A stretch of DNA of 64,000 nucleotides from Caldisericia bacterium (GCA_963674785.1 OY771555.1:144851-208850), one strand, 5' to 3'; counted from the stretch's first letter, positions 6,161-57,278 are shown. Made by a program: numbers and translations. The notes: generated by a model from the letters alone, not told the origin.

Positions 6161-6745
6161 CTACCTGATTATATGAAATCTATTGAGAGGCCAGAAAATA
6201 ACAAATGCCTCACCAACAATACTCTTTTTTTCAATTGGCCCAAACGATCTGGAGTCTTTTGAAGAATCTCTATTGTCTCCAAGAACAAAATACTCGTTAT
6301 CACCAAGCAACTCTCCACGCTTATGGCCTTCAGATTCTGGAGGGAGGACTTCTTGGCTATAATCGGTATCTGGAAACTTGTTCTCTTCAATAAACGGAAC
6401 ACCGTTTAAATAAACAGTTTTTGTATCTTGATCGTAGTCAATCCACTCGCCCGGAAGACCAATAACACGTTTGATATACTCTTCGCCATTATTCACACTT
6501 TTTGGTGGGTGAAAAACAACAATATCGCCACGTTTGGGTCCCGCCGAGATAAAAGCAAGCTTATTCACAAGAATCAGATCATCGTTGAGAATAGTCGGAG
6601 TCATTGAACCCATCTGCACCCTAAAAGGTTGAACCAAAAAAGTTCTGACACCAAAGGCAAGCAGCAGCGCAAGGACTACAACCGCGATCCACTCAAGAAT
6701 CTCTCTTCTTTTCGACTTTGTTTTAGGAGAAGCTAATTCGGACAC
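6161..6745 (-). CDS. lepB: Signal peptidase I (paralog 1)
   Basis: 194 aa; N-terminal TM anchor; Ser box GSMTPT, Lys box YIKRVIGLPGE, box E GDNRDSSKDSRSFGPI. Confidence 0.9.
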   Translation of the reverse strand: MSELASPKTKSKRREILEWIAVVVLALLLAFGVRTFLVQPFRVQMGSMTPTILNDDLILVNKLAFISAGPKRGDIVVFHPPKSVNNGEEYIKRVIGLPGEWIDYDQDTKTVYLNGVPFIEENKFPDTDYSQEVLPPESEGHKRGELLGDNEYFVLGDNRDSSKDSRSFGPIEKKSIVGEAFVIFWPLNRFHIIR

Positions 6746-6748
6746 TTT

Positions 6749-7132
6749 TTAGTTCTCTTCCGATTTTTTAGCTTTTGTTTCCTTTCTAACAATCCTGTCT
6801 TTAAGACGCTGTTTCTTACCAATCCTGTCTCTAAGGTAGTAAAGTTTTGCCCTTCTGATTTTACCGTGTCTGACAACTTCAATTTTGTCAACAAGCGGGG
6901 AATGTAGTGGATAAACTTTTTCTACTCCAAGGTTCTTTACAACTTTTCTTACAGTAAAAGTTTCAGCTACTCCGCCATTTTTTCTTGCAATCACGGTTCC
7001 TTCAAATATCTGAATCCTTGTTTTTGATCCTTCAGTAATTTTCTGATAGACCTTTACTGTATCACCGATCTCAAAACAATTCGGATCCTTCTTGAGCTGA
7101 TCCTTCACCACATCTCTAAGTAATGACTGCAT
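6749..7132 (-). CDS. rplS: 50S ribosomal protein L19
   Basis: Strong L19 resemblance (GDTVKVYQKI..., HSPLVDKIEVVRHGKIRRAKLYYLR). Start moved to ATG at 7130-7132, preceded by AGGAAGGA; the ORF-track start at 7168 is an upstream alternative. Confidence 0.9.
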   Translation of the reverse strand: MQSLLRDVVKDQLKKDPNCFEIGDTVKVYQKITEGSKTRIQIFEGTVIARKNGGVAETFTVRKVVKNLGVEKVYPLHSPLVDKIEVVRHGKIRRAKLYYLRDRIGKKQRLKDRIVRKETKAKKSEEN

Positions 7133-36078: not shown

Positions 36079-36108
36079 TAGCGAATAAATAAATCTTCTC
36101 ATCAAAAA

Positions 36109-36135
36109 CCCCCGAGGAATCCTCGGGGGTTTTTT
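36109..36135 (+). terminator. Rho-independent terminator
   Basis: CCCCCGAGG-AAT-CCTCGGGGG followed by TTTTTT, 30 nt after the stop of 34783..36078. Confidence 0.75.
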
Positions 36136-36796: not shown

Positions 36797-37450
36797 GTGA
36801 AAAGATTATTATCTATTGTGCTTATTGGAATGCTTTTATCAGGAGTGGTAGCCCTAGGAGTTACATTTGCAGAGGAAGAAACTCTTCCCGAGAAACCAGA
36901 ACGACCAGAAACAATCAGATTAAAGCTCTGGGTTAACACTTCAAAATTTGTGAAGGATGATGTTCAGATTACTGATCTTGACCCTGCACCGACAACAAAA
37001 TCACCACCTCTTCCATCAGAGCTTGCAGGAAACACATACATGCCTGTAAGAGCAGTTTTTGAAGCTCTTGGGGCAGATGTGCAGTGGATTGATGACGACA
37101 GAAGGGTAGACGTGCAGCTCGGAAGAATAAAGCTTCAGCTTTGGGTTGACAATGTATCGACGGCAAAAATCAATGACGAAGAGGTGACCATATACAATGC
37201 CGACGAATCAAAGGTTCTCTACCCAACGATTGTAGATGGAAAAACAATGCTTCCATTAAGATTTGCCTGTGAATCACTTAAAGCTGATGTTAACTGGATT
37301 GAAAGTGAATCGGCAATCGAAATCGTATACCCCTCTGAAACGATGGAAGAGCCACCAGCAGATGGCGAAGAAAGACCTGAACCTCCAGGAGATGGCGAAA
37401 CTCCGCCAGACAAACCAGAACCACCAGAAGATGGAGGAGAACAGCCGTAA
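36797..37450 (+). CDS. Secreted copper-amine-oxidase N-terminal ('stalk') domain protein
   Basis: 217 aa; GTG start; signal peptide; stalk-domain motifs (YMPVRAVFEALGADVQWIDDD..., MLPLRFACESLKADVNWIESE); Pro/Glu-rich tail. Confidence 0.75.
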   Translation: MKRLLSIVLIGMLLSGVVALGVTFAEEETLPEKPERPETIRLKLWVNTSKFVKDDVQITDLDPAPTTKSPPLPSELAGNTYMPVRAVFEALGADVQWIDDDRRVDVQLGRIKLQLWVDNVSTAKINDEEVTIYNADESKVLYPTIVDGKTMLPLRFACESLKADVNWIESESAIEIVYPSETMEEPPADGEERPEPPGDGETPPDKPEPPEDGGEQP

Positions 37451-37477
37451 AAAAGGAAACTGATCAAAGTTTTTAAA

Positions 37478-37508
37478 ACCCTCTGTCTTTTAAACAGAGG
37501 GTTTTTTA
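37478..37508. terminator. Bidirectional rho-independent terminator between convergent genes
   Basis: ACCCTCTGT-N7-ACAGAGGGT followed by TTTTTT on the plus strand, with an A-run on the other side. Confidence 0.6.
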
Positions 37509-38746: not shown

Positions 38747-40280
<1,534 letters not shown>

Positions 40281-40668
40281 CATCTTATATATGTATTATA
40301 TATAAAGTGTTATATTAAATAACTAGGTGCTCTCACACCTATATTGTCATTCTGGAATTGCACCGGATATTGACTTTCATGTGTTAATTGCTATCTAGTT
40401 TTCAAACTACTACATTTCCCAGAAGTGAATCGAGGAAAGTTCAGTTTACCACAAAAGGTGACCACCGTCAAGCAGTTACCCTTTCGGCCAACGAGTAATG
40501 AAATATAACCCAAAAAGTTATAGAGTCAAGGAATGGATATAACATGAATAATATATTGCATTCATGGGACTTTCTTGAGAATCAAATTCAATAATCGAAA
40601 GGTTCCTTTAACCATCATTCGAAAGATTTTCACCAAAACGCTTCACATTCAACGATTAAATCGAATCC

Positions 40669-40699
40669 TTGACATTTTACGATATTCGGTCACTATTAT
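40669..40699 (+). promoter_or_regulatory. Candidate sigma-70-type promoter for feoAB
   Basis: TTGACA (40669-40674), 19-nt spacer, TATTAT (40694-40699), 29 nt upstream of ATG 40729. Spacer is longer than optimal. Confidence 0.3.
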
Positions 40700-40728
40700 T
40701 GCAACTATATTGCAAAAGGAGGCACTCG

Positions 40729-41040
40729 ATGACTGAACATTCAAAACACAGAGGATCTCGATTCAGAGGTCATTGTTGTCAAAAACATGGAGACAATGAA
40801 AACTCTCTTCCTGTTTTATCTGAGTTCCCAGTAGGCAAAAAATGCAAGGTTGTCTCTCTCATGGGTTGCATGATGAACAAAAGGCTCGCAAATATGGGTC
40901 TTGGTGTTGGCTCGATTATAGAGATAATCAAGAATGATTTATCAGGAGGACCGTTGATCGTTTTTTCTGATTCTGTAAGAATCGCCATTGGTAGAGGAAT
41001 GGCAAGGCAGATTTGCTGTGAGGAGATAAAAGATGAGTAG
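40729..41040 (+). CDS. feoA: Ferrous iron transport protein A with His/Cys-rich N-terminal tail
   Basis: FeoA fold motifs (VGKKCKVVSL..., GPLIVFSDSVRIAIGRGMARQI); ATG 40729 preceded by AAAGGAGG; N-terminal HSKHRGSRFRGHCCQKHGD. The ORF-track start at 40669 is the TTG of the -35 box. Confidence 0.8.
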   Translation: MTEHSKHRGSRFRGHCCQKHGDNENSLPVLSEFPVGKKCKVVSLMGCMMNKRLANMGLGVGSIIEIIKNDLSGGPLIVFSDSVRIAIGRGMARQICCEEIKDE

Positions 41041-43297
41041 AGAATACGAAATAGGATTGGCAGGAAATCCGAACGCGGGTAAAACTTCTGTTTTTAACCA
41101 CATAACCGGAGCAATGCAAACGACCGGCAACTGGCCAGGAGTAACAGTATCAAAAGTCTCTGGAAAATGCAGCGTTAAAAACGAAAAGATGAACATCGTT
41201 GATCTTCCAGGGACATATTCTCTCTCAGCACATTCTGAGGATGAACTCGTTGCAAGAGAATATATCGTAAAGGATAACCCAGATGTTGTGATAAACGTTC
41301 TAGATGCAACCGCACTTGAACACAATCTCTTCTTGACGCTTCAAATTATTGAACTTGGGGTTCCTGTCGTAATTGCCCTTAACATGACAGATGAAGCAAA
41401 AAAAAGGGATTTAAAGGTTGACGCAAAACGTCTTTCAAACATCCTCGGCGTTCCAGTAATTGAAACAATCGGAACATCTGGCGAAGGTGTTAAGGAACTT
41501 ATGTGTGCAGTTCTTGATGTCGCAAAGTCCAGAAAGAGAAGTAACTATCTCGTCGATTATGGTCCCGAGATTGAACATTCGACCCAGAAGATTCAGGAAG
41601 TACTCTCCGAAACTGAAATCGCTAAAACAAAGTATCCTCCACATTTCTTTGCTCACAAGCTTCTCGAAAATGATAAAGCAATTTGCAACGAAGTAGAAAC
41701 AATAAAGCATCCAGAACTCGTTCACGAAATCGTCAATAAGGAGATAAAAAGGTTAAAGGGGATTTTTGGGGATGATGTTGAAACTCTCGTCATAGATCGT
41801 CGTTACGAACAAGCAAGAATAATCTCGAAAGAAGTGGTGAAAGGAATCGTTAGAAGACAAAGATTTGTTGATAAAATTGATAGATTTCTTGCAAACAGAT
41901 TTATTGGAATTCCAATATTTGGTATCGTTATGTGGGGGATATTCTATGCAACATTTACTTGGGGTGCCCCACTCAGTGATTGGGTAGCCGAGGGGTTAGC
42001 ATGGATAGACACAACATTGTTCGGTGCTCTCGTTGACTCATCATCCGTTCTTGTTTCAAATATTGGGAACTTCCTAAGTGGAGTTATCAACGATGGTATC
42101 GGTGGAATATTAGTATTTTTCCCATTCATTGTCATCCTCTTCCTTATCCTCTCGTTCCTAGAAGACAGCGGGTATATGGCTCGAATTGCGTACATAATGG
42201 ATGGCATAATGTCCAAAGTCGGGCTTTCGGGAAAAGCATTCATACCATACGTTGTCTCATTTGGATGTGCTGTACCTGGTGTTGTTGCCACAAGGACGCT
42301 TGATTCAAAAAGGGAAAGAATTTTAACTATACTTACTGCACCTCTTGTTTCCTGTGTTACAAGAATGGAAGTTTTCTTTTTCCTAGCAGCAATTTTCTTT
42401 GCAGGTTCGGCACTTGCTCAATCACTTGTTGTATGGTCAGTATTCATTTTTGGTATCCTGCTGGCTATCACTCTCGTTGCGATATTCTCTAAGATCTTCT
42501 TCAAAAACGAACCAGCAACACCACTTCTTATCGAGCTTCCACCATACAGATGGCCAACACTTAGATCAGTTCTAATCCACACATGGGATAGAACCAAACA
42601 CTTCCTCCAGAAAGCTGGTGGTGTCATACTTATTGGTGCAATTATTTTCTGGATCCTTTCAAACACACCAACAAGTGGAATAACCTCCTCAGCAACCCCA
42701 TGGTTCATTGTACTTCTAGTTCTCGCTTTATGGATGGTTATAAATTCAGTTTTTTCAAAAAGATTATATAAGAACACCGAAACTCGATCAAAAACGGTTA
42801 AAACAATCAACATCATTCCATTCGTATTGATCGTTGGAGTATTCGTTCTTGGTGTCATGCCACATATCAGCTTAAGCGTTGATGCAATCGAACAGTCACT
42901 CGTTGGAAAAATAGGACACTCACTTGAATGGTTCGTTAGACCATTGGGACTTGACTGGAGAGCAGTTATTGCACTCATTGCAGGATTTGTTGCAAAAGAA
43001 CTTCTTATTTCAATCTTCGGCGTTCTTGGCAATTTTGCAGAGGATGCAGAACCAGGTGGGCTTGAAGCAGGGCAAAATCCAGAGGGAACACCAGCAGTTA
43101 TTGCCACTTGGTACACAACACCTGCTGTTCTCGGAATGATGGTTTTCTTTAACCTTTACTCCCCATGCCTTGCAACAATCGGTGCGATCAAAGCTGAGGC
43201 AGGTTGGAAATGGATGTGGTTCTCAATAGCTTATGGAATCGCTCTCGGATGGATAATGTCATTCATTGTTTACCAGGTCGGGTCGCTTTTCATTTAA
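41033..43297 (+). CDS. feoB: Ferrous iron transport protein B
   Basis: 754 aa; N-terminal G-domain GNPNAGKTSVFNHITG followed by polytopic membrane domain; overlaps the feoA stop. Confidence 0.9.
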   Translation: MSREYEIGLAGNPNAGKTSVFNHITGAMQTTGNWPGVTVSKVSGKCSVKNEKMNIVDLPGTYSLSAHSEDELVAREYIVKDNPDVVINVLDATALEHNLFLTLQIIELGVPVVIALNMTDEAKKRDLKVDAKRLSNILGVPVIETIGTSGEGVKELMCAVLDVAKSRKRSNYLVDYGPEIEHSTQKIQEVLSETEIAKTKYPPHFFAHKLLENDKAICNEVETIKHPELVHEIVNKEIKRLKGIFGDDVETLVIDRRYEQARIISKEVVKGIVRRQRFVDKIDRFLANRFIGIPIFGIVMWGIFYATFTWGAPLSDWVAEGLAWIDTTLFGALVDSSSVLVSNIGNFLSGVINDGIGGILVFFPFIVILFLILSFLEDSGYMARIAYIMDGIMSKVGLSGKAFIPYVVSFGCAVPGVVATRTLDSKRERILTILTAPLVSCVTRMEVFFFLAAIFFAGSALAQSLVVWSVFIFGILLAITLVAIFSKIFFKNEPATPLLIELPPYRWPTLRSVLIHTWDRTKHFLQKAGGVILIGAIIFWILSNTPTSGITSSATPWFIVLLVLALWMVINSVFSKRLYKNTETRSKTVKTINIIPFVLIVGVFVLGVMPHISLSVDAIEQSLVGKIGHSLEWFVRPLGLDWRAVIALIAGFVAKELLISIFGVLGNFAEDAEPGGLEAGQNPEGTPAVIATWYTTPAVLGMMVFFNLYSPCLATIGAIKAEAGWKWMWFSIAYGIALGWIMSFIVYQVGSLFI

Positions 43298-43315
43298 AGG
43301 ACATAAAAACACAAA

Positions 43316-43615
43316 ATGATACTTAAAAAAACTCTCGACGCTCTAAAAACTGGAGGATTTAGAACCCTTCCAGAGCTTGCTGGTCACCTTAAGATAACTA
43401 CTGAAGAGTTAAAAAGCATCATAGACATACTCGTTGCTACGGGAAAGCTCCGAAAAAAAGAGCAGCAAATAAGCGGAAGCACTGGCTGTAGTGGTTGTTG
43501 CTGTTCCCAATCATGCTCAGGTTGTTCTTGTCATAATTCAAAGAGTAAAGCATCTTCAGTAGAAAGCACAAGCAAAAACAGTATTTCATTCTATGAGATA
43601 GCAGAAAACCCATAG
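43316..43615 (+). CDS. FeoC-like winged-helix protein with Cys-rich C-terminus (paralog 1)
   Basis: 99 aa; N-terminal HTH-like region then CSGCCCSQSCSGCSCH. Confidence 0.55.
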   Translation: MILKKTLDALKTGGFRTLPELAGHLKITTEELKSIIDILVATGKLRKKEQQISGSTGCSGCCCSQSCSGCSCHNSKSKASSVESTSKNSISFYEIAENP

Positions 43616-43746
43616 CTATGAATGTCATCGAGTTTGCATGCAAACTCAAACTATTGTTAAATTTCTATATGTACACATTATCAGTTTTTCCAACACACCT
43701 AGGGTCTAGAATCATCTAGGAATTTCCAAGAAAAGGAGTAGAAATT

Positions 43747-44649
43747 GTGAAAACTATACAATATAGTTGCAAATTTATCGCATTAGTTGCTATCATCGCA
43801 TTAGCCACGACATTTGCAATCACAACAATATACGTAAACGCACATACACCAGGTGCAAAACCAGAACCAATCTTCGAATTCAAATCGATAACACTCATGG
43901 ATGGAACAGAAGTTATCGAGCTATCAATCGATCAGTTGAATAAATTCCACGCTGAGGGAGTAGCGTTATCAACAGAAAGACAGCTTATAAAACAGGGAAA
44001 AAGTGATGAAGAAATCAGAGAAGCGATTGAGGAAAAAAGAAGTACAGAATCAGGGGCAGGACCGTGTGGGATTAGTGTATATAGGGCAATGCTGATTGCT
44101 GCGCGTGAACTTTGGGAAGATGGGATAATCACTAGATCGGAACTCAAGATTGAATCAAATTGGACTGGAGGAGGATCAATAGATTTTTGCAGGTATCTGA
44201 CTGGAAACACGGATAGAATTGCAGTTGAATCAAAGGGAGAGTTCGTACTCTCAAACAAAGGGAAAACAGTAGACATCGATATTGATTATCCGGAAATCAA
44301 GAAAATTTCAAAAGAAATGAACTCAAGTTCTTTCTTTTACCGAATAACAAATAAAAGTACAGGTAACTCGATAGATTTCCAAATAGCTGAAGATATTATT
44401 CCTGAAGGATATTTCTCACTTAGAAGTGATGCAAAATTCAATAGCGAGGTTTCAGAGAGTATTCTTAATGAATTCGCATCCTCATGGTCAGAGTTTCGGG
44501 ATAATCTGCTTCTACTGAATGATTGGGAAATATTTGAGGGGATAGAGGAACCACCAGCAAAAGCACCAGTAATGGCACTTATTGTTATCTTTGGAGTTCT
44601 AGCTCTCATCGTAATTATGTGGATTGTGGGTAAAACGAGGAGATTTTAG
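43747..44649 (+). CDS. Membrane-anchored hypothetical protein
   Basis: 300 aa; GTG start; N-terminal signal/TM and C-terminal TM anchor (VMALIVIFGVLALIVIMWIVG). Confidence 0.6.
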   Translation: MKTIQYSCKFIALVAIIALATTFAITTIYVNAHTPGAKPEPIFEFKSITLMDGTEVIELSIDQLNKFHAEGVALSTERQLIKQGKSDEEIREAIEEKRSTESGAGPCGISVYRAMLIAARELWEDGIITRSELKIESNWTGGGSIDFCRYLTGNTDRIAVESKGEFVLSNKGKTVDIDIDYPEIKKISKEMNSSSFFYRITNKSTGNSIDFQIAEDIIPEGYFSLRSDAKFNSEVSESILNEFASSWSEFRDNLLLLNDWEIFEGIEEPPAKAPVMALIVIFGVLALIVIMWIVGKTRRF

Positions 44650-45017
44650 TTTCTCGTTTTGTGTTTATTTTCATGTTTAAGAAAGTTTTATTATGAGTCA
44701 ATCTCAAGCAATCGGTTAAAAACTAACCAGCTTAAGGTCTTCACACATCAAAGGTTCACCGCCTTTCCATTCTTGAGAACCCATAACCCACAATATGGGT
44801 TCTCATCAAAAAAGTAATTTTCAAACCAAGCAGGCAAAATATGATCACAACAAAAATGCTTGATACACCATCTCTTTTCCAGGAGCCAGAACTCACCTCT
44901 GGCTCCACGACCTAAAGTCCATCAAAAAGTTATATGAATCAATCATTGATGAGCTAATGCAAAAGAATAAAATAGGGCTTATAAGAAAAATAAATGAGTT
45001 AAGGAATGTGTGACGCT

Positions 45018-45299
45018 ATGCAGAAAATTAGACCCGGTCAGTTGATTGATTTCATAAAGGAAAAAGGATTCACAACCATTAAAACAGCTGCAGGAGAGCT
45101 GAACGTCAGCGAGGAAGGAATCCTTGAGTTAATAAAACTACTAAGGAACAAAAAACACCTCGTAAAAATAGATTTAACAGAAGATTCTGATTGTGAAAGT
45201 GGAAGTTGCAGTGGATGCAGTGGTTGTGGTGCAAGTTATGTGATTCAAGTAGACGATGAGCAAATTGCATATGCTCTTTCATCCATTGCCTCCAGGTAA
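45018..45299 (+). CDS. FeoC-like winged-helix protein with Cys-rich segment (paralog 2)
   Basis: MQKIRPGQLIDFIKEKGF...ELIKLLRNKKHLVKI...CESGSCSGCSGCG; same architecture as 43316..43615. Confidence 0.55.
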   Translation: MQKIRPGQLIDFIKEKGFTTIKTAAGELNVSEEGILELIKLLRNKKHLVKIDLTEDSDCESGSCSGCSGCGASYVIQVDDEQIAYALSSIASR

Positions 45300-45438: not shown

Positions 45439-46038
45439 ATGAAAAAAATTGGTACAATTACGCTTATAGTTTTATTAGTTTTAGTATTTTTCCCATCCTA
45501 TTCCCACAATGAAGAAGTGATAGCAGACGTTCTTGAATCATGTCCCGAAATCAGATCTTTTGGGGTTCTTCCAGATAGCATATATGTGAATACCAATGTC
45601 GCTCAAACCCAAAGTGGCGTTGTGATGCACGATTTCTATGGAGATATCGAACTTACAACGCGGTCAATAAACACAGGGAGTTATAAATGCGATATCACAT
45701 GTGAATTTACATATACGGATGTTAACTACACCCATCTCTATTGGAGAGTTATCATTTATGATGGAAAAGTTCACGATGTATGGCTTGACGGAAAAAAGAT
45801 CAAACCAAAACTCGAAGAAGATGACGGTCTCATGTGGATATCCACGGAAATTGATGAAGACTTCGAGTATGGTGAGCATTCGATGAGATTTGTCTACAGT
45901 GTCGATTTTGAGCAATCAAATCCCGACAACACAAGATATCAATGCTTTGTAAAACGGATACCATGCTCATATGTACGAGGGATGGTGGCCAACGCATTTT
46001 GCACAGCAGTACACAGACATAATTCATACCTCATTTGA
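45439..46038 (+). CDS. Secreted N-terminal segment of a split zincin-like metallopeptidase (possible frameshift)
   Basis: 199 aa with signal peptide MKKIGTITLIVLLVLVFF; overlaps the next ORF by 68 nt in a different frame. Confidence 0.55.
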   Translation: MKKIGTITLIVLLVLVFFPSYSHNEEVIADVLESCPEIRSFGVLPDSIYVNTNVAQTQSGVVMHDFYGDIELTTRSINTGSYKCDITCEFTYTDVNYTHLYWRVIIYDGKVHDVWLDGKKIKPKLEEDDGLMWISTEIDEDFEYGEHSMRFVYSVDFEQSNPDNTRYQCFVKRIPCSYVRGMVANAFCTAVHRHNSYLI

Positions 46039-48784
46039 TCTTAAAATGCCAAACACATGGTTCATGATGGGAGATTTTATCCCTGAAGAATACAGAGATG
46101 AACCTAGTCCAACAGGTGAATATCACATGGAACAATACGAATCATATCCTCCTATCATGAGGATATGCTGCGGTGAATATGAAGTCACAAAGTATGAAGG
46201 TGACACCTATGATGTCAGGATGTATGCCTTCAGGGGCCAATCTGGAGATGCCGAATATCTAATTGGCACAAGCAAAGATTCAATCGAGTTTTTCTCGGAA
46301 TACTACGAACATCCTTGCACAAATGATTTCTTTATTGCCGCACAAACTGCCGGCAGAGGAAGCGGAAGAGGGATGGACGGCGGATTCATAATGGATACCA
46401 ACTATCTGAATCGTCAGAATATGGCTGAGGATTTTATATCTCATGAGGTATCACATGTTTGTTGGTGGGGAGGAACCGGAGTAATGGGGAATACTTCTCA
46501 ACCAAACTTAAGATTTCTAAACGAAGCAACCGCAGAATTCTCAAGTCTTCTGTTCTGTGAGCAGGTACTCTCAGAACAGAAGGGTTTTGAAGAGTGGAAG
46601 CTTAGGATGGAGTGGTACAGAGACACGAAAGACTATTACAAATCAAAAGGGTGGACAGAACCTCCAATAATAAACCCGGCATCTGCAGACAATTTTTCAA
46701 TCACGTACTATAAAGGTGCATGCGTTTTCTGGGCTTTAAGATATTACATGGGTGAAGAGAATTTTAGAAATGCGATGATCGAGATTTTCAATAATTACGC
46801 TAGATCAAATGCTCCAAGCGATGATGAGTGGTACAGACCATCAATTGCCGATTTTTACAACACATTCAAAAAACATGCGAAAAGGGATATCAGCGGATTC
46901 TGGAGCACTTATGTTGGAAGCACTGAACTCCCAAGGCTTGATTATTCTATTAACCGAATCAGATATAAAGGAGTAATCTATGATTCAGTAAACCTGAAAA
47001 ATCTTACAGAACACAAATCACCATTAATGGTTCATGTGTACCACTCAGACGGCACATATGAAGAAGTGATTCTGGAAGAACTTGACCAATCATTTAGGAT
47101 CGATGGGCATGCCTCAGGAGTGTTATTTCATGATTACATGGGATCAATGCCAGAGCCAGACGATATTTCAAATAAAATGAATACGGCGTCTATTGCTGCT
47201 GTTGTTTCCTGGGAACCGCCAACTATCTTCGTATCCAAAAAAGATGGAGAAGAGTACGTAACTCGAGCTGAAAAATGGGTTGAAAAAACTGGTGGAGAGG
47301 TTGTAATTGATGATTTTACAGAACTGCCTTTTAAAAAGCCTATTCTTCTCGTCGGACCATCAGCAATTATCGAGTTTGCAGCCGAAGAGTACAAAAATCT
47401 CCGAATCAAAGACACAGAAGATGGATTAAATTGGCTTGGAAAAAAATTTGAAGGCCGCTTTAGTACAATTGTTGTCACATATGACAAGGATGATATTGAG
47501 AGACCAATTATAATCGATACTGGTGTTGGAGAAATCCCAGAAAACCTTTCATATACAGGGTTATACACAACACAAGACAACCGAATAGTGATGGGATATA
47601 ACTACCTGGATCCTGAAACGGAAGAAATCCCGGGGCCAGATGCACTTTGTCAGCTTCCATGGGAAAAAATTGATTCACAGGTTGACAAATCAGCGTTCTA
47701 CGTTTCTTTTACAAACCCGAGACCTTTTGAAATCTCCTACAATGGTTTCTCATTCGAAGACTTTGAGTTTAAGGATATTGAACAGAAGTTTGAGCCAGAG
47801 ACACTTTCCTCTGAGGTGCTGCTTGATCTCTCAGGCGGAAAAACTCAAAATGTCAAAATATCACACTCGGATAGATTTGTAACTGAGGAATGGGATTTCA
47901 ATATCAGTCTTGATCCCAATATAGATGAGTTTAATGGACTAAAAAAGATAATTATTCCAGAAATAGTCAAAGGTGAATCCATTGAGATAAAATGGATTGA
48001 ACAAATGGAGTACATATACGCTATTGACGATTTTAAAATGACTGACTGGAAGATGGGCTCAAGATTAACGCTAACCGATCTAGCAAAGGGAAGACATACA
48101 CTCAAAATGCTCTTCAACGATAACGGTTTACTTAGCCCTCTAATCGAAAAAGAATTTGTGTCAGGTGTGAGTGAACCAGAGCTTCAACTGGACAAAACAT
48201 TCGCCCTGTGGAAAAATGGAGAAATCAGAATTACAGGCAAGGCAACCCCTGGGGTTGAATTGATTCCACCAGGTGAAATCGATGAGGAAGGGAACTTTGA
48301 AATAATTGTTTCTACCAATGAAATCCCTCAAATCATATCCATTACTGCAAAAAACGAATATGGTCTGGAGACATCAAAAAGCATAAGCATCATCAAGTTC
48401 ATCAAACTTGACATGTTCCTGGGAAAGGAAAATGTAACATCTGATATTGGAGAGACCTGGACTCTTGATGTTCCACCCCAGCTTGTAAATGGGTCAACAT
48501 ATGTTCCGATGAGATTCATTGGTGAAAGACTGGGTGCTGATGTCTCCTGGGTTGCTGATGAAAAGAAAGTTATCTACAGCCTTAGGAACACCCAAATCGA
48601 GATATGGATCGGTAATGACATCTCAAAAGTCAACGGTATCGAAACAAAGATGCCCGGAGAGCCAGTGATCATATCCGGAAGAACGCTTGTACCGGTAAGA
48701 TTTGTATCTGAAGCGTTGGGTGCAAAAGTCACCTGGTGTGGTGAAGAGAAGAAGATAACTATAGAGTATCCGAATTTGGAGTAG
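45971..48784 (+). CDS. Zincin-like metallopeptidase (HExxH...E) with C-terminal copper-amine-oxidase N-terminal domains
   Basis: 937 aa; HEVSHVCWWGG...NEATAEF gluzincin signature; C-terminal stalk repeats (YVPMRFIGERLGADVSWVADEKK, LVPVRFVSEALGAKVTWCGEEKK); no signal peptide of its own. Confidence 0.7.
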   Translation: MYEGWWPTHFAQQYTDIIHTSFDLKMPNTWFMMGDFIPEEYRDEPSPTGEYHMEQYESYPPIMRICCGEYEVTKYEGDTYDVRMYAFRGQSGDAEYLIGTSKDSIEFFSEYYEHPCTNDFFIAAQTAGRGSGRGMDGGFIMDTNYLNRQNMAEDFISHEVSHVCWWGGTGVMGNTSQPNLRFLNEATAEFSSLLFCEQVLSEQKGFEEWKLRMEWYRDTKDYYKSKGWTEPPIINPASADNFSITYYKGACVFWALRYYMGEENFRNAMIEIFNNYARSNAPSDDEWYRPSIADFYNTFKKHAKRDISGFWSTYVGSTELPRLDYSINRIRYKGVIYDSVNLKNLTEHKSPLMVHVYHSDGTYEEVILEELDQSFRIDGHASGVLFHDYMGSMPEPDDISNKMNTASIAAVVSWEPPTIFVSKKDGEEYVTRAEKWVEKTGGEVVIDDFTELPFKKPILLVGPSAIIEFAAEEYKNLRIKDTEDGLNWLGKKFEGRFSTIVVTYDKDDIERPIIIDTGVGEIPENLSYTGLYTTQDNRIVMGYNYLDPETEEIPGPDALCQLPWEKIDSQVDKSAFYVSFTNPRPFEISYNGFSFEDFEFKDIEQKFEPETLSSEVLLDLSGGKTQNVKISHSDRFVTEEWDFNISLDPNIDEFNGLKKIIIPEIVKGESIEIKWIEQMEYIYAIDDFKMTDWKMGSRLTLTDLAKGRHTLKMLFNDNGLLSPLIEKEFVSGVSEPELQLDKTFALWKNGEIRITGKATPGVELIPPGEIDEEGNFEIIVSTNEIPQIISITAKNEYGLETSKSISIIKFIKLDMFLGKENVTSDIGETWTLDVPPQLVNGSTYVPMRFIGERLGADVSWVADEKKVIYSLRNTQIEIWIGNDISKVNGIETKMPGEPVIISGRTLVPVRFVSEALGAKVTWCGEEKKITIEYPNLE

Positions 48785-48788
48785 GATA

Positions 48789-50336
48789 CTACTTTTTATA
48801 GGTAAGGCGGATCTCTTTGGTTTCTGCAATCCAATCAACATTGCAGCCATGAGATTCGCCGAGAAATCTGAATGGAACCATTGTTCTACCATTGATGATG
48901 CTCGGAACAACTCCCGGGTTTGGGTCAATCTCTACAATCTTTCCATCAACTCTCGCCTGGTTTTTCCCAATCCAAAACTCAACAATTTCGCCTGCAAAAT
49001 AGCTTGTAACTTTTCGTTCAGCAGCATCCCATCTGACCCATCCACCAAGGGGCTCAATTACGTATCTTGCGGGGATGAGTGTCCTGTCGTGAGCAATAAC
49101 AGGTTCAGAGTCTATTGAGATATTCGTACTGTCAATCGTTAGCGATGATTGACCAAGCTGGAAACCAAGATATTTGGCACCAGCACCAAAGGAACAGATT
49201 TTACCCAACTCATCACCAATAAATATTGAACCATCTGAAATGGCTGGAGCTGATGTAAACCCTCTAGTATGCTCTATCTGCCAAAGAGTCTTCCCACTCT
49301 TTGAGTCAATACAGTAGATGACCCCCTGAGTATCAGAAGAGCCGCTTACCTTAGTCGCAAAGTATGTTTTGCTTGATGAGATCGGTGCTGAGACAATCTC
49401 CTCGCCAACCTTCAAACTCTTAATCCATTTCGATGAACCATCAGAAGTCTTGATGGCCTTCAGGAAGTTTTTCGAACCTATCTTTACACCAACTATAAGT
49501 GAATCATCATATATTGAAGGAAGAGTTTCGATTGAATCACCCACATCAATGTTCCATTTTTCTGAACCATTTGAGGAGCTTAAACAAAACATCTCACCAC
49601 TTTCAAAAGACACAAAACAATTGTCTCCTGAGACCGTAACACTCTGCTCAAAAAGCCCTTTACTGAGAGTTTTTTTCCATATCTTTGAACCTGTTCTATA
49701 ATTAAAACAATGAACACTTTTTTCTGAAGCTACATAAACTCTACCGGCAGAGTATGAAGGTATCCCAGCAGTTTCTCCAGAAAGCTGTTCTGTCCAGTCC
49801 TTCTTTTGTTGAAGAGGGTTTTTTAGATAGGTTATATTAGTAATTCCATTTTGGGTACTCGTATAGAAAAGACCCCTTTCAGGTACAACAAGCACAGAAT
49901 CAACTTTTGTATTTGTTTCAATAGAAAATCGTTCTCGACCATTTTTAAGATAAAAAACATCAATCGATCTCCACCCAGGAACAAAAATCAAGTCGTTCCA
50001 TATGGCCGGGATTGTATCAGAGTCAACCGAACCGAGAGTCTTTGACCATTCTTTTCGGCCGTTGCTGCTTATACAATTCAACCTGCCACCATCTGAAATA
50101 TATACAATTTTATCACCATAAACGATAGGCGGAGAAAGGGTTGCAGCATTTGTGTCATACTCCCAATATTTTGCGAATCGATTCAATGACAGCCCACAGG
50201 AGTCATCAAATGCACCTGTCCTTGCAGGGTTGCCTCGGTGCATCTCCCAATTGCAGCCGATAGCAAAAGTACAGACAGGATTGATTGTCAATACTGCCAG
50301 CAAAAATAGTATTATCGCGACTCTTTGAACGTTCAT
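48789..50336 (-). CDS. Secreted PQQ-type beta-propeller protein with C-terminal copper-amine-oxidase N-terminal domain
   Basis: 515 aa; signal peptide; propeller-blade motifs (RTGSKIW, NGSEKW, DGSSKW, KSGKTLW); C-terminal stalk motifs (LIPARYVIEPLGGWVRWDAAERK, MVPFRFLGESHGCNVDWIAETK). Confidence 0.75.
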   Translation of the reverse strand: MNVQRVAIILFLLAVLTINPVCTFAIGCNWEMHRGNPARTGAFDDSCGLSLNRFAKYWEYDTNAATLSPPIVYGDKIVYISDGGRLNCISSNGRKEWSKTLGSVDSDTIPAIWNDLIFVPGWRSIDVFYLKNGRERFSIETNTKVDSVLVVPERGLFYTSTQNGITNITYLKNPLQQKKDWTEQLSGETAGIPSYSAGRVYVASEKSVHCFNYRTGSKIWKKTLSKGLFEQSVTVSGDNCFVSFESGEMFCLSSSNGSEKWNIDVGDSIETLPSIYDDSLIVGVKIGSKNFLKAIKTSDGSSKWIKSLKVGEEIVSAPISSSKTYFATKVSGSSDTQGVIYCIDSKSGKTLWQIEHTRGFTSAPAISDGSIFIGDELGKICSFGAGAKYLGFQLGQSSLTIDSTNISIDSEPVIAHDRTLIPARYVIEPLGGWVRWDAAERKVTSYFAGEIVEFWIGKNQARVDGKIVEIDPNPGVVPSIINGRTMVPFRFLGESHGCNVDWIAETKEIRLTYKK

Positions 50337-55571: not shown

Positions 55572-57278
55572 TTAATTTATATCATATGTGACTGTAATAT
55601 CAATTCTTTTTTCGTCACCATCCCACCCAATTTCACCATTTAAGGTGTCCTGGGCAATAAATCTGAGTGGAACAAGTGTCGTACTATTTTGAATAAATGG
55701 TGCTGCATCAAGTTTTAGAAGCTGCCCATCAAGAAATGCTGTTGTTGAATCAATCATAACAATACAAGTATGCTCTGGACCGACTACCGTTACTGATCTT
55801 GTATCACCGTCCCATTTTACCTCAGACCTCAATGACTCCGAGACAAACCTGACGGGAAGAAATGTTCTTCCATTTTTAATGGTTGGTGGAACCTGAAGAT
55901 AAACCCTTACTCCATCAACATAGGCTTCAGGTTGACCAATCCACATAGAGACTTTAATCGTTTCCTGAAGAACAAGTTCAACTTCTTTAGTCCAGGTGGT
56001 TTCATTCCCTGCAGTATCAACTGCAACCAAAGAAAGTGTGTTTGTCCCAGATTTTAAAGGAAAACTCACTGAGAACTTTCCATCATCCACAGCCTTAACG
56101 GGTTTTGAACCATATTTAATTGTTGCACCAGGCTCAGTAATTCCATTTACTACAAGTGGATTTTTGTGAACAACGTCACCGGGATCTGTTACAGAAAGAA
56201 CCGGTTTTACAGTGTCTAATGTGACTTGAACAGTTTTTTCTGTCACTCCACCCTTATCATTTTTTGCATAAAACTCAATCTTATTGAGTCCTTCATTGAG
56301 CATCAATTCATGCTCGAACGAACCATCAACGGCGATCTCTCTTGGCATCCTGTTGATTTTTAAGCTTACACCAGGGTTTGTTCTACCCTTAATAGTAATG
56401 GTACTCTGGTTGGTAATCATGCCTTCTTTTGGTTCATCAATTGTTATATCAGGTGGAATTACCTCTTCTACAGCTTTTTCCATAAGGTAGAAAGTACACA
56501 AAACTTCAGCAGTACCACCATTTGAATATATTTCACATCTGCTTTTATAATTCTTATTCACCCTCAATCCTTCAGTTGGTGGATTAACAGTCAGTGAAAT
56601 CTCTTTCTCATCTGCTGTAAAATTCACAGGATCAACTGAAAGCCAAGAGCTATTGCATTCGGCAGTCGCCTTCAGACCTTCTTTGCCAATGTTTTTTACC
56701 TTCGCTGTAAGAGTCTTTGAATCTCCAGGATACATCGAACCAAAATCAAGTGTTTCTGGGCTTACTGTTATTTTTGGTTTTGTTGGAGAAGAGACAACTT
56801 CAACATAAGAATCTTTTGTTGTAAGTTCGACACTTTCAAACCCTTTTGTTTTAGCGATAACCTTTTCTATCTTAATATCTGATTTTTCAGATGGTGTGAG
56901 TCCAACAAAATTAAGCATACAAATAGTTTTCAATTCAGATGGAAGGGTTGTTTTTTTATCGATATGAGAAACTGTCACCGTAACTGTACCAGATTTTGCA
57001 TTATTAATCTCAGCAACAGGTTCCACTTCACCCTCGATAAAGCTTCCCCACTCATAATCGTTGAACTTTAAAACTTTTGCCTCATAAACAATTTCAAAAG
57101 ATAAGGCATAAACATCCTTGAGGTCTCTTGATCTGATGTCAACACGAAGTGTGTCATTCTTCATGATTTTCTTTAAAACTGGTTCAACCGTAAGCTCACC
57201 CTCAGATGAACTCACATATCCAGCAGAAATTATCATCATCGAACAGACAATCACTGATAAAATTTTATTTCTCATCAT
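55572..57278 (-). CDS. Secreted multi-domain protein with two C-terminal copper-amine-oxidase N-terminal domains
   Basis: 568 aa; signal peptide; Ig-like beta-rich middle; C-terminal FLPVRFVSESLRSEVKWDGDTR and LVPLRFIAQDTLNGEIGWDGDEK. Confidence 0.7.
   Translation of the reverse strand: MMRNKILSVIVCSMMIISAGYVSSSEGELTVEPVLKKIMKNDTLRVDIRSRDLKDVYALSFEIVYEAKVLKFNDYEWGSFIEGEVEPVAEINNAKSGTVTVTVSHIDKKTTLPSELKTICMLNFVGLTPSEKSDIKIEKVIAKTKGFESVELTTKDSYVEVVSSPTKPKITVSPETLDFGSMYPGDSKTLTAKVKNIGKEGLKATAECNSSWLSVDPVNFTADEKEISLTVNPPTEGLRVNKNYKSRCEIYSNGGTAEVLCTFYLMEKAVEEVIPPDITIDEPKEGMITNQSTITIKGRTNPGVSLKINRMPREIAVDGSFEHELMLNEGLNKIEFYAKNDKGGVTEKTVQVTLDTVKPVLSVTDPGDVVHKNPLVVNGITEPGATIKYGSKPVKAVDDGKFSVSFPLKSGTNTLSLVAVDTAGNETTWTKEVELVLQETIKVSMWIGQPEAYVDGVRVYLQVPPTIKNGRTFLPVRFVSESLRSEVKWDGDTRSVTVVGPEHTCIVMIDSTTAFLDGQLLKLDAAPFIQNSTTLVPLRFIAQDTLNGEIGWDGDEKRIDITVTYDIN

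Follow-up and report, generated by a model that had tools for sequence, protein, structure and literature searches.

The feo locus of a Caldisericia bacterium, contained in a stretch of 64,000 nucleotides (nt) (GCA_963674785.1 OY771555.1:144851-208850; hereafter the window, from the start of which all coordinates are counted), consists of a known Feo system, a duplicated pair of small FeoC-like proteins, and a surface protein of an FmdE-like family, an accessory also present in the feo operons of methanogens. Feo is the most widespread prokaryotic importer of Fe2+, and both the route by which the metal reaches FeoB and the role of FeoC are still debated (PMC8749426; bioRxiv 10.1101/2022.02.26.482101). 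If anaerobes encode a conserved, outward-facing protein in their feo operons, that protein becomes a concrete candidate for the delivery step that Feo still lacks, and the link between the FmdE-like proteins and feo genes is, of all features of the locus, the most interesting. The reading that we favor, with moderate confidence, is that of a Feo operon in which a repressor would act at a conserved repeat over the transcription start, the FeoC-like pair would act on FeoB, the FmdE-like protein would be an outward-facing metal partner, and the intergenic hairpins would function at the RNA level. The genes of the locus (aa, amino acids) are as follows.

40729-41040, plus strand: feoA, 103 aa; Pfam FeoA, 51.1 bits, E=1.5e-13
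41033-43297, plus strand: feoB, 754 aa; TIGR00437, 561.7 bits against the cut-off of 315.65, E=2e-168
43316-43615, plus strand: small1, FeoC-like paralog 1, 99 aa; winged helix and a run of seven cysteines, GCSGCCCSQSCSGCSCH
43747-44649, plus strand: FmdE-like gene, 300 aa; GTG start behind AAAGGAG
45018-45299 (93 aa) or from the ATG at 45006 (97 aa), plus strand: small2, FeoC-like paralog 2; C-x4-C-x2-C-x2-C in the wing, CESGSCSGCSGC

The FmdE-like surface protein and its linkage to feo genes

The 300-aa protein, originally described as an unknown, doubly anchored membrane protein, belongs to an FmdE-like family whose linkage to feo genes is systematic. An exhaustive phmmer search identifies 70 relatives; a word-indexed homologue search with the same protein recovers only the query itself. 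The orthologs that occupy the same slot in the related loci L005, L006 and L050 are 39-45% identical to it (here and below, L-numbers designate loci of relatives that were read for gene context, and P-numbers, homologous proteins or cluster representatives). The N-terminal hydrophobic segment looks like a cleavable signal peptide, so that only the C-terminal anchor is left of the two anchors proposed. The predicted layout is a signal peptide (residues 1-32), the motif A|H33-x-P-G-A, the FmdE-like domain (approximately residues 60-265, with an insert of about 35 aa), a transmembrane segment (TM; residues 273-294), and the tail GKTRRF. Throughout the family, the signal peptide ends in a small-x-small site that is followed by a near-invariant histidine, and the motif A|H-x-P-G-A at the mature N-terminus is found in 23 of the 30 members. 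A C-terminal sorting signal resembling PEP-CTERM (EPPA, TM and basic tail) was considered and rejected, given that no second protein with such a tail is encoded in the window.

The relationship with FmdE emerges through intermediate sequences. The Pfam FmdE profile (PF02663, cut-off of 22.9 bits) matches 16 of the 30 family members at E<0.1, with the best E=7e-27, and the scores of P0024 (29.1 bits), P0027 (32.3 bits) and P0036 (94.5 bits) are above the cut-off. A BLASTP alignment covers residues 106-263 of the window protein and the FmdE domain of P0036 (E=1e-14). The known structures of FmdE contain a zinc site that is formed by the motif FHGHxC and a distal cysteine (PMC2954224). The window protein contains F67-H68-A69-E70, followed by C107 past the insert of about 35 aa, and no Caldisericota ortholog deviates at H68, E70 or C107. 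In the wider family, the invariant residues are Arg113, Arg130 and Asp/Glu132. Judging by these comparisons, the 300-aa protein is a divergent relative of FmdE and not a scoring member of the Pfam family; NCBIfam contains no model for the FmdE-like family.

Gene context of this family was read at 45 loci; the metagenome scan used an alignment of 8 sequences. At each of the 21 loci with at least 2 kb of upstream sequence, including those of Methanoculleus, feoB is located upstream of the FmdE-like gene, on the same strand. In L048 and L049, a feoA-feoA-feoB array is located downstream of the FmdE-like gene, next to a siderophore-type ABC transporter, and in L012, genes of DtxR and FeoA adjoin the FmdE-like gene. 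When the family is clustered at 70% identity (n=12), 9 clusters are linked to feoB, 1 is linked to FeoA/DtxR, and 2 are represented by sequences too short for judgement. The most common archaeal order, found in Methanoculleus genomes, is feoA-feoA-feoB(N)-feoB(C)-154-aa four-TM protein-FmdE-like-DtxR. The Methanoculleus protein is labelled "hypothetical protein" in UniProt (A3CY85), and P0028, the representative of an archaeal cluster, is similar to the window protein with E=1.8e-21 in a phmmer search. In long relatives, the FmdE-like domain is fused to CbiX/CbiK chelatase domains and to wall-binding modules (SLH, dockerin or Cu_amine_oxidN1), which places it in a setting of metal handling outside the cell. 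Because the FmdE-like gene follows feoB in methanogens and the domain is fused to CbiX/CbiK in wall-anchored proteins, the FmdE-like protein is predicted to be an outward metal-handling partner of the Feo system.

Several further features of these loci deserve mention. P0041, P0057, P0078, P0085, P0079 and P0087 are large predicted surface proteins with several CbiX/CbiK domains and wall-anchoring modules (SLH, dockerin or Cu_amine_oxidN1); the Pfam FmdE-like domain is detected in 4 of the six, and the extracellular chelatase array is itself unusual. In the archaeal-type operons, a polytopic protein of about 155 aa with four hydrophobic segments is always encoded between feoB and the FmdE-like gene (L011, 2725-3192; L046, 7540-8004; L014-L039, by tblastn); it has no Pfam or NCBIfam match and is absent from the Caldisericota loci. 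Two adjacent genes of the DtxR family follow the FmdE-like gene in L019, L023, L028, L030, L036 and L042, in parallel with the FeoC-like pair of Caldisericota. In L041, the FmdE-like gene and a terminator are followed by a gene (621-890) for an 89-aa FeoC-like winged-helix protein with HGCAGCPMSKTC; given that both genes are present in this locus, the co-occurrence of FeoC-like and FmdE-like proteins extends outside Caldisericota. In L013, a 49-aa TM peptide with the tail CQGCGQDCSTVC (6621-6770), of the FeoB-associated Cys-rich type, is encoded between feoB and a gene for a 175-aa lipoprotein-like protein, which in turn precedes the FmdE-like gene.

The linkage of the FmdE-like family to feo genes apparently has not been described, either in the literature or in curated families. 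In the literature searched, no mention of FmdE together with FeoB was found, and the terms "formylmethanofuran dehydrogenase subunit E" and "ferrous iron" coincide in one article, which is, by its title and abstract, a transcriptome study of Acidiplasma. An earlier description in work on archaeal DtxR regulons is possible, and the 2015 study of such regulons by Leyn and Rodionov is the most likely place for a mention of these operon genes.

The core feo genes and a conserved pair of FeoC-like paralogs

The identification of a feoAB locus in the original prediction holds, with FeoA (Pfam) and FeoB (TIGR00437) both scoring above the model cut-offs, and every gene and motif on the earlier list was located in the window sequence. 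FeoB contains the Pfam domains FeoB_N, FeoB_Cyto, two Gate domains and FeoB_C, and its reading frame shares 8 nt with that of feoA. The ATG of feoA at 40729 lies 6 nt past the Shine-Dalgarno sequence AAAGGAGG, and the homologues begin at the same point; the start coordinate initially given, 40669, has to be corrected, as the TTG at this position opens the -35 hexamer TTGACA. The His/Cys-rich tail attributed to FeoA (HSKHRGSRFRGHCCQKHGD, residues 4-22) is present in the window protein, and this part of the claim stands, whereas its composition is kept only in part among relatives, with Cys in 4 of 5 and R13 as the single invariant residue; a basic N-terminal extension of FeoA is found in all relatives compared.

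The small1 gene begins 18 nt past feoB, and small2 is located further downstream on the same strand. The search against Pfam FeoC (PF09012, gathering threshold of 21 bits) yields 26.3 bits for small1, with model positions 3-61 of 69 covered, and matches 11 of the 15 family members at E<0.1. An hhalign comparison of the ortholog sets of small1 and small2 spans the helix-turn-helix with the probability of 96% (E=1.8e-9), at the identity of only 26% between the two proteins. The AlphaFold model of small2, built from a 15-sequence alignment (pLDDT, the model confidence score, of 75), consists of helices 6-16, 21-28 and 32-44 and strands 48-52, 75-77 and 83-87, in the order helix-strand-helix-helix-strand-Cys loop-strand-strand, with the Cys loop (56-71) disordered. 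A Foldseek search of the PDB started with this model identifies E. coli FeoC (1xn7) as the best match with the probability of 0.96, followed by other winged helices. In profile-to-PDB alignments, the segment DCESGSCSGC of small2 is in register with GCLSGSCKSC of the E. coli and K. pneumoniae FeoC, such that the first three cysteines align; the motif is C-x4-C-x2-C-x5-C in these proteins and C-x4-C-x2-C-x2-C in small2. A further similarity of the small2 motif is to the loop CRAGSCSSC of plant ferredoxins. Hence small1 and small2 are both FeoC-like, as originally proposed, each a winged-helix protein with a wing rich in cysteines: small1 by the Pfam match, and small2 by the model, the Foldseek and hhalign results and the motif. 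The structure prediction suggested as a check gives a winged helix for small2, with the cysteines in the wing loop.

Homologues of small1 by itself are very few. The search with a profile of both small proteins identifies nine strong relatives (E<=1e-19) beyond the window's own small2, two of them named "Caldisericia bacterium"; the search of genome contigs with the profile of the small2 family detects two loci only. The related Caldisericota loci are of four kinds, three of which have the order 16S rRNA (divergent)-feoA-feoB-small1-[optional 300-aa gene]-small2-M1-peptidase-like gene; in L050, no 16S gene is visible, only a short sequence being available upstream of feoA. These loci differ in the region between the two small genes as follows.

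L001-L004: 300-aa gene absent; small1 and small2 split by a canonical terminator hairpin
L008, L010: 300-aa gene absent; small1 and small2 genes overlap (ATGA)
L005; L006, L007 and L009; L050; the window: 300-aa gene present, between small1 and small2

Both paralogs are encoded in every related locus (L001-L010 and L050). Orthologs of small1 are found directly after feoB in all related loci and are 22-45% identical, with 4-7 cysteines. Orthologs of small2, which adjoins small1 in L001 and overlaps it in L008 and L010, are 54-64% identical and retain the C-x4-C-x2-C-x2-C motif; a variant from one metagenome-assembled genome has Ser in place of the fourth Cys, and a near-identical genome has Cys. 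The overlap of the two genes in one lineage suggests that the two proteins probably act together. The presence of two FeoC-like proteins per operon, noted at the outset, thus reflects true paralogs that are kept in all related loci, most likely old FeoC paralogs as judged by sequence comparison. The longer Cys cluster that had been taken to set them apart is found in small1 of the window and of L050; the family as a whole keeps about four cysteines, like gammaproteobacterial FeoC. The conserved trait, accordingly, is about four cysteines in the wing, as in FeoC, and the run of seven is local. A conserved pair of FeoC-like paralogs within one operon is new, although FeoC-like proteins beyond Gammaproteobacteria have already been recognised. 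With a canonical Cys motif in one paralog and a drifting Cys run in the other, the pair offers a natural comparison of Fe-S sensing with FeoB binding.

With regard to the start of small2, which is a conserved Met-(Arg/Lys)-Pro-Gly, several loci have no clear Shine-Dalgarno sequence in front of it. In L001 (10305-10349), this start is about 15 nt past the T-run of the terminator, and in L050 (4510-4581), an in-frame TTG located 17 codons upstream of the small2 start has a good Shine-Dalgarno sequence ahead of it.

Promoter, candidate operator and intergenic hairpins

Upstream of feoA, two elements were delineated.

40669-40696, plus strand: predicted sigma-70-type feo promoter; -35 TTGACA at 40669-40674, 16-nt spacer, weak -10 CACTAT at 40691-40696
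40698-40716, plus strand: candidate operator, the inverted repeat ATTGCAA-CTATA-TTGCAAa, which spans the predicted start of transcription and immediately precedes the Shine-Dalgarno sequence

The promoter was not called in a consensus scan, its -10 hexamer being weak; TTGAC(A/T) and the spacing to a -10 of the TAGTAT/TAATGT type are kept in L001, L002, L005, L006, L008 and L050. The repeat TTGCAA-N6-TTGCAA (40699-40716), originally noticed in the interval that separates the -10 from the Shine-Dalgarno sequence, is indeed there and is better read as ATTGCAA-N5-TTGCAAa. It is conserved in place and in its half-sites at all 7 loci that were read upstream of feoA, which represent four sequence types: it is perfect in L008 (ATTGCAA-GAATT-TTGCAAT) and takes the forms ATTGCAA-TAAAA-TTGCAAA in L050 and TTGCAA-TATAT-TCGCAT in the L001 group. 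An overlap with the transcription start is usual for a repressor site. The suggested search for a Fur box turned up no Fur, PerR or DtxR box upstream of feoA better than those in shuffled sequences, the best matches being 12/19 for Fur, 11/15 for the 7-1-7 form and 10/19 for DtxR. The ATTGCAA-N5-TTGCAAT repeat is a credible operator on the strength of its position and conservation.

The main rival explanation builds on this repeat and holds that the FeoC-like proteins are the operon's own repressors, which as a homodimer or heterodimer would sense iron or an Fe-S cluster through the Cys cluster, bind ATTGCAA-N5-TTGCAAT and replace the archaeal DtxR. It is compatible with the winged-helix fold, with the conserved palindromic site at the start of the operon where Fur and DtxR boxes are lacking, with the lack of Fur and DtxR genes in the window, and with the copy of a half-site, TTGCGAAAGGAG, ahead of small2 in L050; moreover, the archaeal feo/FmdE-like operons are closed by a DtxR gene or a pair of them, and in Caldisericota the FeoC-like genes are found there. 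However, DNA binding by FeoC was proposed and never verified, whereas binding to NFeoB was shown (bioRxiv 10.1101/2022.02.26.482101), small2 is acidic overall by a count made by eye, and the regulator could be encoded outside the 64 kb. We regard this explanation as somewhat unlikely; it is compatible with a role on FeoB, and both may hold.

It appears unlikely, more so than the repressor explanation, that the Cys segments are thiolate buffers or chaperones that take the metal (Fe2+, or else Zn2+ or Cu+) from FeoB, rather than Fe-S sites, in the manner of the FeoB-associated Cys-rich peptides and of the Cys-rich C-termini that FeoB has in other phyla. The same question has been raised before (PMC8749426). 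The profile of the small proteins weakly detects PF12669 peptides with CSGCSGC repeats (P0014, P0018), the 49-aa peptide encoded after feoB in L013 is of this type, and the drift of small1 from 4 to 7 cysteines is more buffer-like than expected of a fixed cluster site. Against this, the motif of small2 is strictly conserved, matches the [4Fe-4S]-binding motif of the E. coli and K. pneumoniae FeoC residue for residue, and resembles CxxGSCSSC of plant ferredoxins. Neither small1 nor small2 has a match to PF12669 or a hydrophobic segment.

Between the genes, a palindrome and several hairpins were identified.

43630-43647, no strand assigned: perfect 18-bp palindrome GAGTTTGCATGCAAACTC, 14 nt past the small1 stop codon
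44630-44662, plus strand: terminator-like hairpin spanning the FmdE-like stop codon; 13 pairs, T-rich tail GTTTATTTTC, -10.6 kcal/mol (consensus scan)
44774-44805, no strand assigned: strong hairpin upstream of small2; perfect 12-bp stem, 8-nt loop, -18.3 kcal/mol
44882-44906, no strand assigned: second hairpin; 9-bp stem, 7-nt loop, -17.1 kcal/mol, within a stretch of about 200 nt unique to the window

The original prediction regarded the two palindromes, at 43630 and at 44774-44805, as operators for the winged-helix proteins, an explanation that we now consider quite improbable. The palindrome of 18 bp has no mismatch and exceeds all others in the window in length (the sole case with a half-length of at least 9 in 64 kb), its TTTGCA/TGCAAA echoes the TTGCAA half-sites of the promoter, and a GCAAAC core is found again after small1 in L005, L006 and L050. 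However, 0.42 such palindromes are expected by chance, both palindromes are downstream of coding regions and not at the promoter, and their sequences are not conserved, an outcome that had been named beforehand as refuting. At the place of the 18-mer, which as RNA forms a 7-bp stem with a 4-nt loop (-7.6 kcal/mol) and no T-run after it, L005 and L006 have a different, longer hairpin with only the outer TTTGC/GCAAA in common, and L050 has yet another hairpin. The position of the hairpin at 44774-44805 matches that of a canonical terminator, AAAAACCCGC...GGGCGGGTTTTT, before small2 in L001, L005 and L006; in L050, the hairpin at this position has another stem and the common loop ATAACCCA. In this region upstream of small2, the lineages are too different in sequence to be aligned. 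At three sites in the window, against 0.32 expected, there are perfect hairpins whose arms reach 11 nt or more; the other two, with arms of 12-14 nt (36104-36134 and 37475-37505), are probably terminators. Going by the counts in the window and those expected, the palindrome, the hairpin and the TTGCAA repeat are not striking, so that only the related loci discriminate. The intergenic hairpins, as compared across these loci, are probably RNA-level elements and unlikely operators. Promoter-like sites are present at 44818-44845 and 44946-44973, and small2 may have its own weak promoter in the window.

That the 300-aa gene is a passenger inserted between the feoC-like genes and unrelated to iron uptake is very improbable: the gene is missing from L001-L004, L008 and L010, is flanked by hairpins on both sides, and has its own Shine-Dalgarno sequence and terminator-like site, but its homologues adjoin feo genes in three gene orders, in two domains of life and at every informative locus, which largely refutes this explanation.

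The surroundings of the operon show additional conserved features. A complete 16S rRNA gene (38747-40282, minus strand) is located immediately upstream of feoA and is divergent from it; this adjacency and portions of the intergenic region are kept in L001, L008 and L010. No match to 23S or 5S rRNA was found within the 64 kb, and the rRNA genes appear to be unlinked. In all relatives, the feo cluster is followed by a gene for a surface protein of about 1064 aa with M1-peptidase-like and Cu_amine_oxidN1 regions. In the window, this gene is split (45439-46038 and 45971-48784, plus strand): the orthologs align from residue 138, in frame 2 from 45962, and frame 1 is an open reading frame of 199 aa with a signal peptide, so that a frameshift, a sequencing error or a genuine split are all conceivable. 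C-terminal repeats similar to Cu_amine_oxidN1, akin to the tail of the M1-peptidase-like protein, are also encoded at 36998-37336 (plus strand), 48768-49178 (minus strand) and 55596-56486 (minus strand), which suggests that they are a common surface-anchoring module in this organism.

Proposed mechanism and comparison with known systems

According to the reading favored here, the operon would be transcribed from the TTGACA promoter, and the repeat over the start would be bound by an iron- or redox-responsive repressor, the binding and the identity of this regulator being inferred. By analogy with the E. coli and K. pneumoniae FeoC, the FeoC-like pair would hold an O2-labile Fe-S cluster or Fe2+ at the approximately four cysteines of the wing and, again by analogy, would target the GTPase domain of FeoB in the cytosol, matching transport to the iron and redox state. 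The 300-aa protein would be exported, removal of its signal peptide would expose the N-terminal histidine, and the C-terminal helix would hold the protein on the outer face of the membrane, where it may capture Fe2+, or a bound form of it, or present it to FeoB from outside. The hairpins would serve as terminators, attenuators or stabilisers that set the expression of the downstream accessory genes.

Several observations weigh against this reading. With respect to the FeoC-like pair, small2 is under the Pfam FeoC threshold (16.9 bits against 21), its sequence matches to FeoC in the PDB are marginal (E of 0.2-0.5), and the Cys spacing of small1 shifts among relatives. With respect to FmdE, neither Pfam nor NCBIfam contains a model that matches the 300-aa protein, and Pfam FmdE is not detected in it at E<=1, so that its link to FmdE is transitive; the solved FmdE structures in the PDB are out of reach for the family profiles and for the P0036 sequence, and the single-sequence AlphaFold model of the 300-aa protein has a pLDDT of 46. 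About half of the wider family lacks equivalents of the metal ligands of FmdE, and the invariant Arg113, Arg130 and Asp/Glu132 could mean that an anionic ligand is bound, rather than a bare cation. With respect to regulation, the repeat upstream of feoA is not over-represented in the 64-kb window (with up to 2 mismatches allowed, 1 occurrence is found and 0.77 are expected), tblastn detected neither a Fur nor a DtxR gene within these 64 kb, and the hairpin at 44774-44805 is not followed by the T-run that is required of a terminator.

A broader proposal, which we put forward tentatively and hold to be less probable than the reading above, is that Feo has an extracytoplasmic arm, in which the FmdE-like protein with its signal peptide and N-terminal histidine, joined in archaea by the four-TM companion of about 155 aa, would capture or process environmental Fe(II), perhaps complexed or bound to sulfide, and deliver it to FeoB. 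This arm would be ancestral in the feo operons of methanogens and would have been acquired by Caldisericota, with the FeoC-like pair taking over the regulatory place of DtxR. Through the link to feo genes, a part of the FmdE family, traditionally assigned to methanogenesis, gains a plausible role in metal handling.

Among the known systems, FeoC of E. coli (YhgG, 1xn7) and K. pneumoniae (2k02, 4awx) is the closest counterpart of the small proteins. FeoC is likewise a winged-helix protein of about 80-100 aa with a disordered Cys wing, encoded after feoB; C-x-SGSC-x-x-C of small2 is in register with it, and small1 passes Pfam PF09012. The FeoC of these two bacteria carries an O2-labile [4Fe-4S] cluster in the Cys-rich wing and binds NFeoB, with DNA binding not demonstrated (bioRxiv 10.1101/2022.02.26.482101). 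The Caldisericia operon differs by belonging to another phylum and by encoding two paralogs that are about 26% identical to each other. The last spacing of the small2 motif is C-x2-C rather than C-x5-C, the cysteines of small1, which number up to 7, are variably spaced, and both proteins carry a C-terminal extension of 20-30 residues. FeoC-like proteins outside Gammaproteobacteria are acknowledged, and their relationships have been described as unresolved (PMC8749426). One such protein, P0016 (83 aa, winged helix with GCSGSCSGCSGC, GSCSGCSGC), likewise has its gene immediately past feoA-feoB, on an unrelated contig of metagenomic origin; P0016 and the protein of L041 differ from the window pair in being single-copy in the loci seen. 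The FeoB-associated Cys-rich peptides (PF12669) are similar in their linkage to feoB, in their CSGCSGC-type repeats and in the weak profile match of P0014 and P0018; they differ in their size of 50-70 aa, their N-terminal TM and the lack of a winged helix, whereas the window proteins are soluble and contain the winged helix.

Classical FmdE is a cytoplasmic protein, often with a C-terminal zinc finger, that is co-transcribed with genes for formylmethanofuran dehydrogenase (PMC2954224). The window protein, by homology via intermediate sequences, probably shares with FmdE (PF02663) the alpha+beta core domain, and its F67-H68-A-E70...C107 would be a remnant of FHGHxC; it differs by the signal peptide, the N-terminal histidine, the insert of about 35 aa, the membrane anchor and the feo operon context. 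The archaeal operon of the Methanoculleus type is alike in encoding a signal-peptide FmdE-like protein downstream of feoB and differs in that feoB is split in two genes, an additional small polytopic protein is encoded, and DtxR takes the place of the FeoC-like genes; as far as we know, this arrangement is undescribed. To our knowledge, no extracytoplasmic partner of this kind has been established for Feo. Outward metal-binding proteins that are encoded together with the permease they feed are represented by EfeO, P19/FtrA and periplasmic CbiK, which have no sequence relationship to the FmdE-like proteins and resemble them in the logic proposed here.

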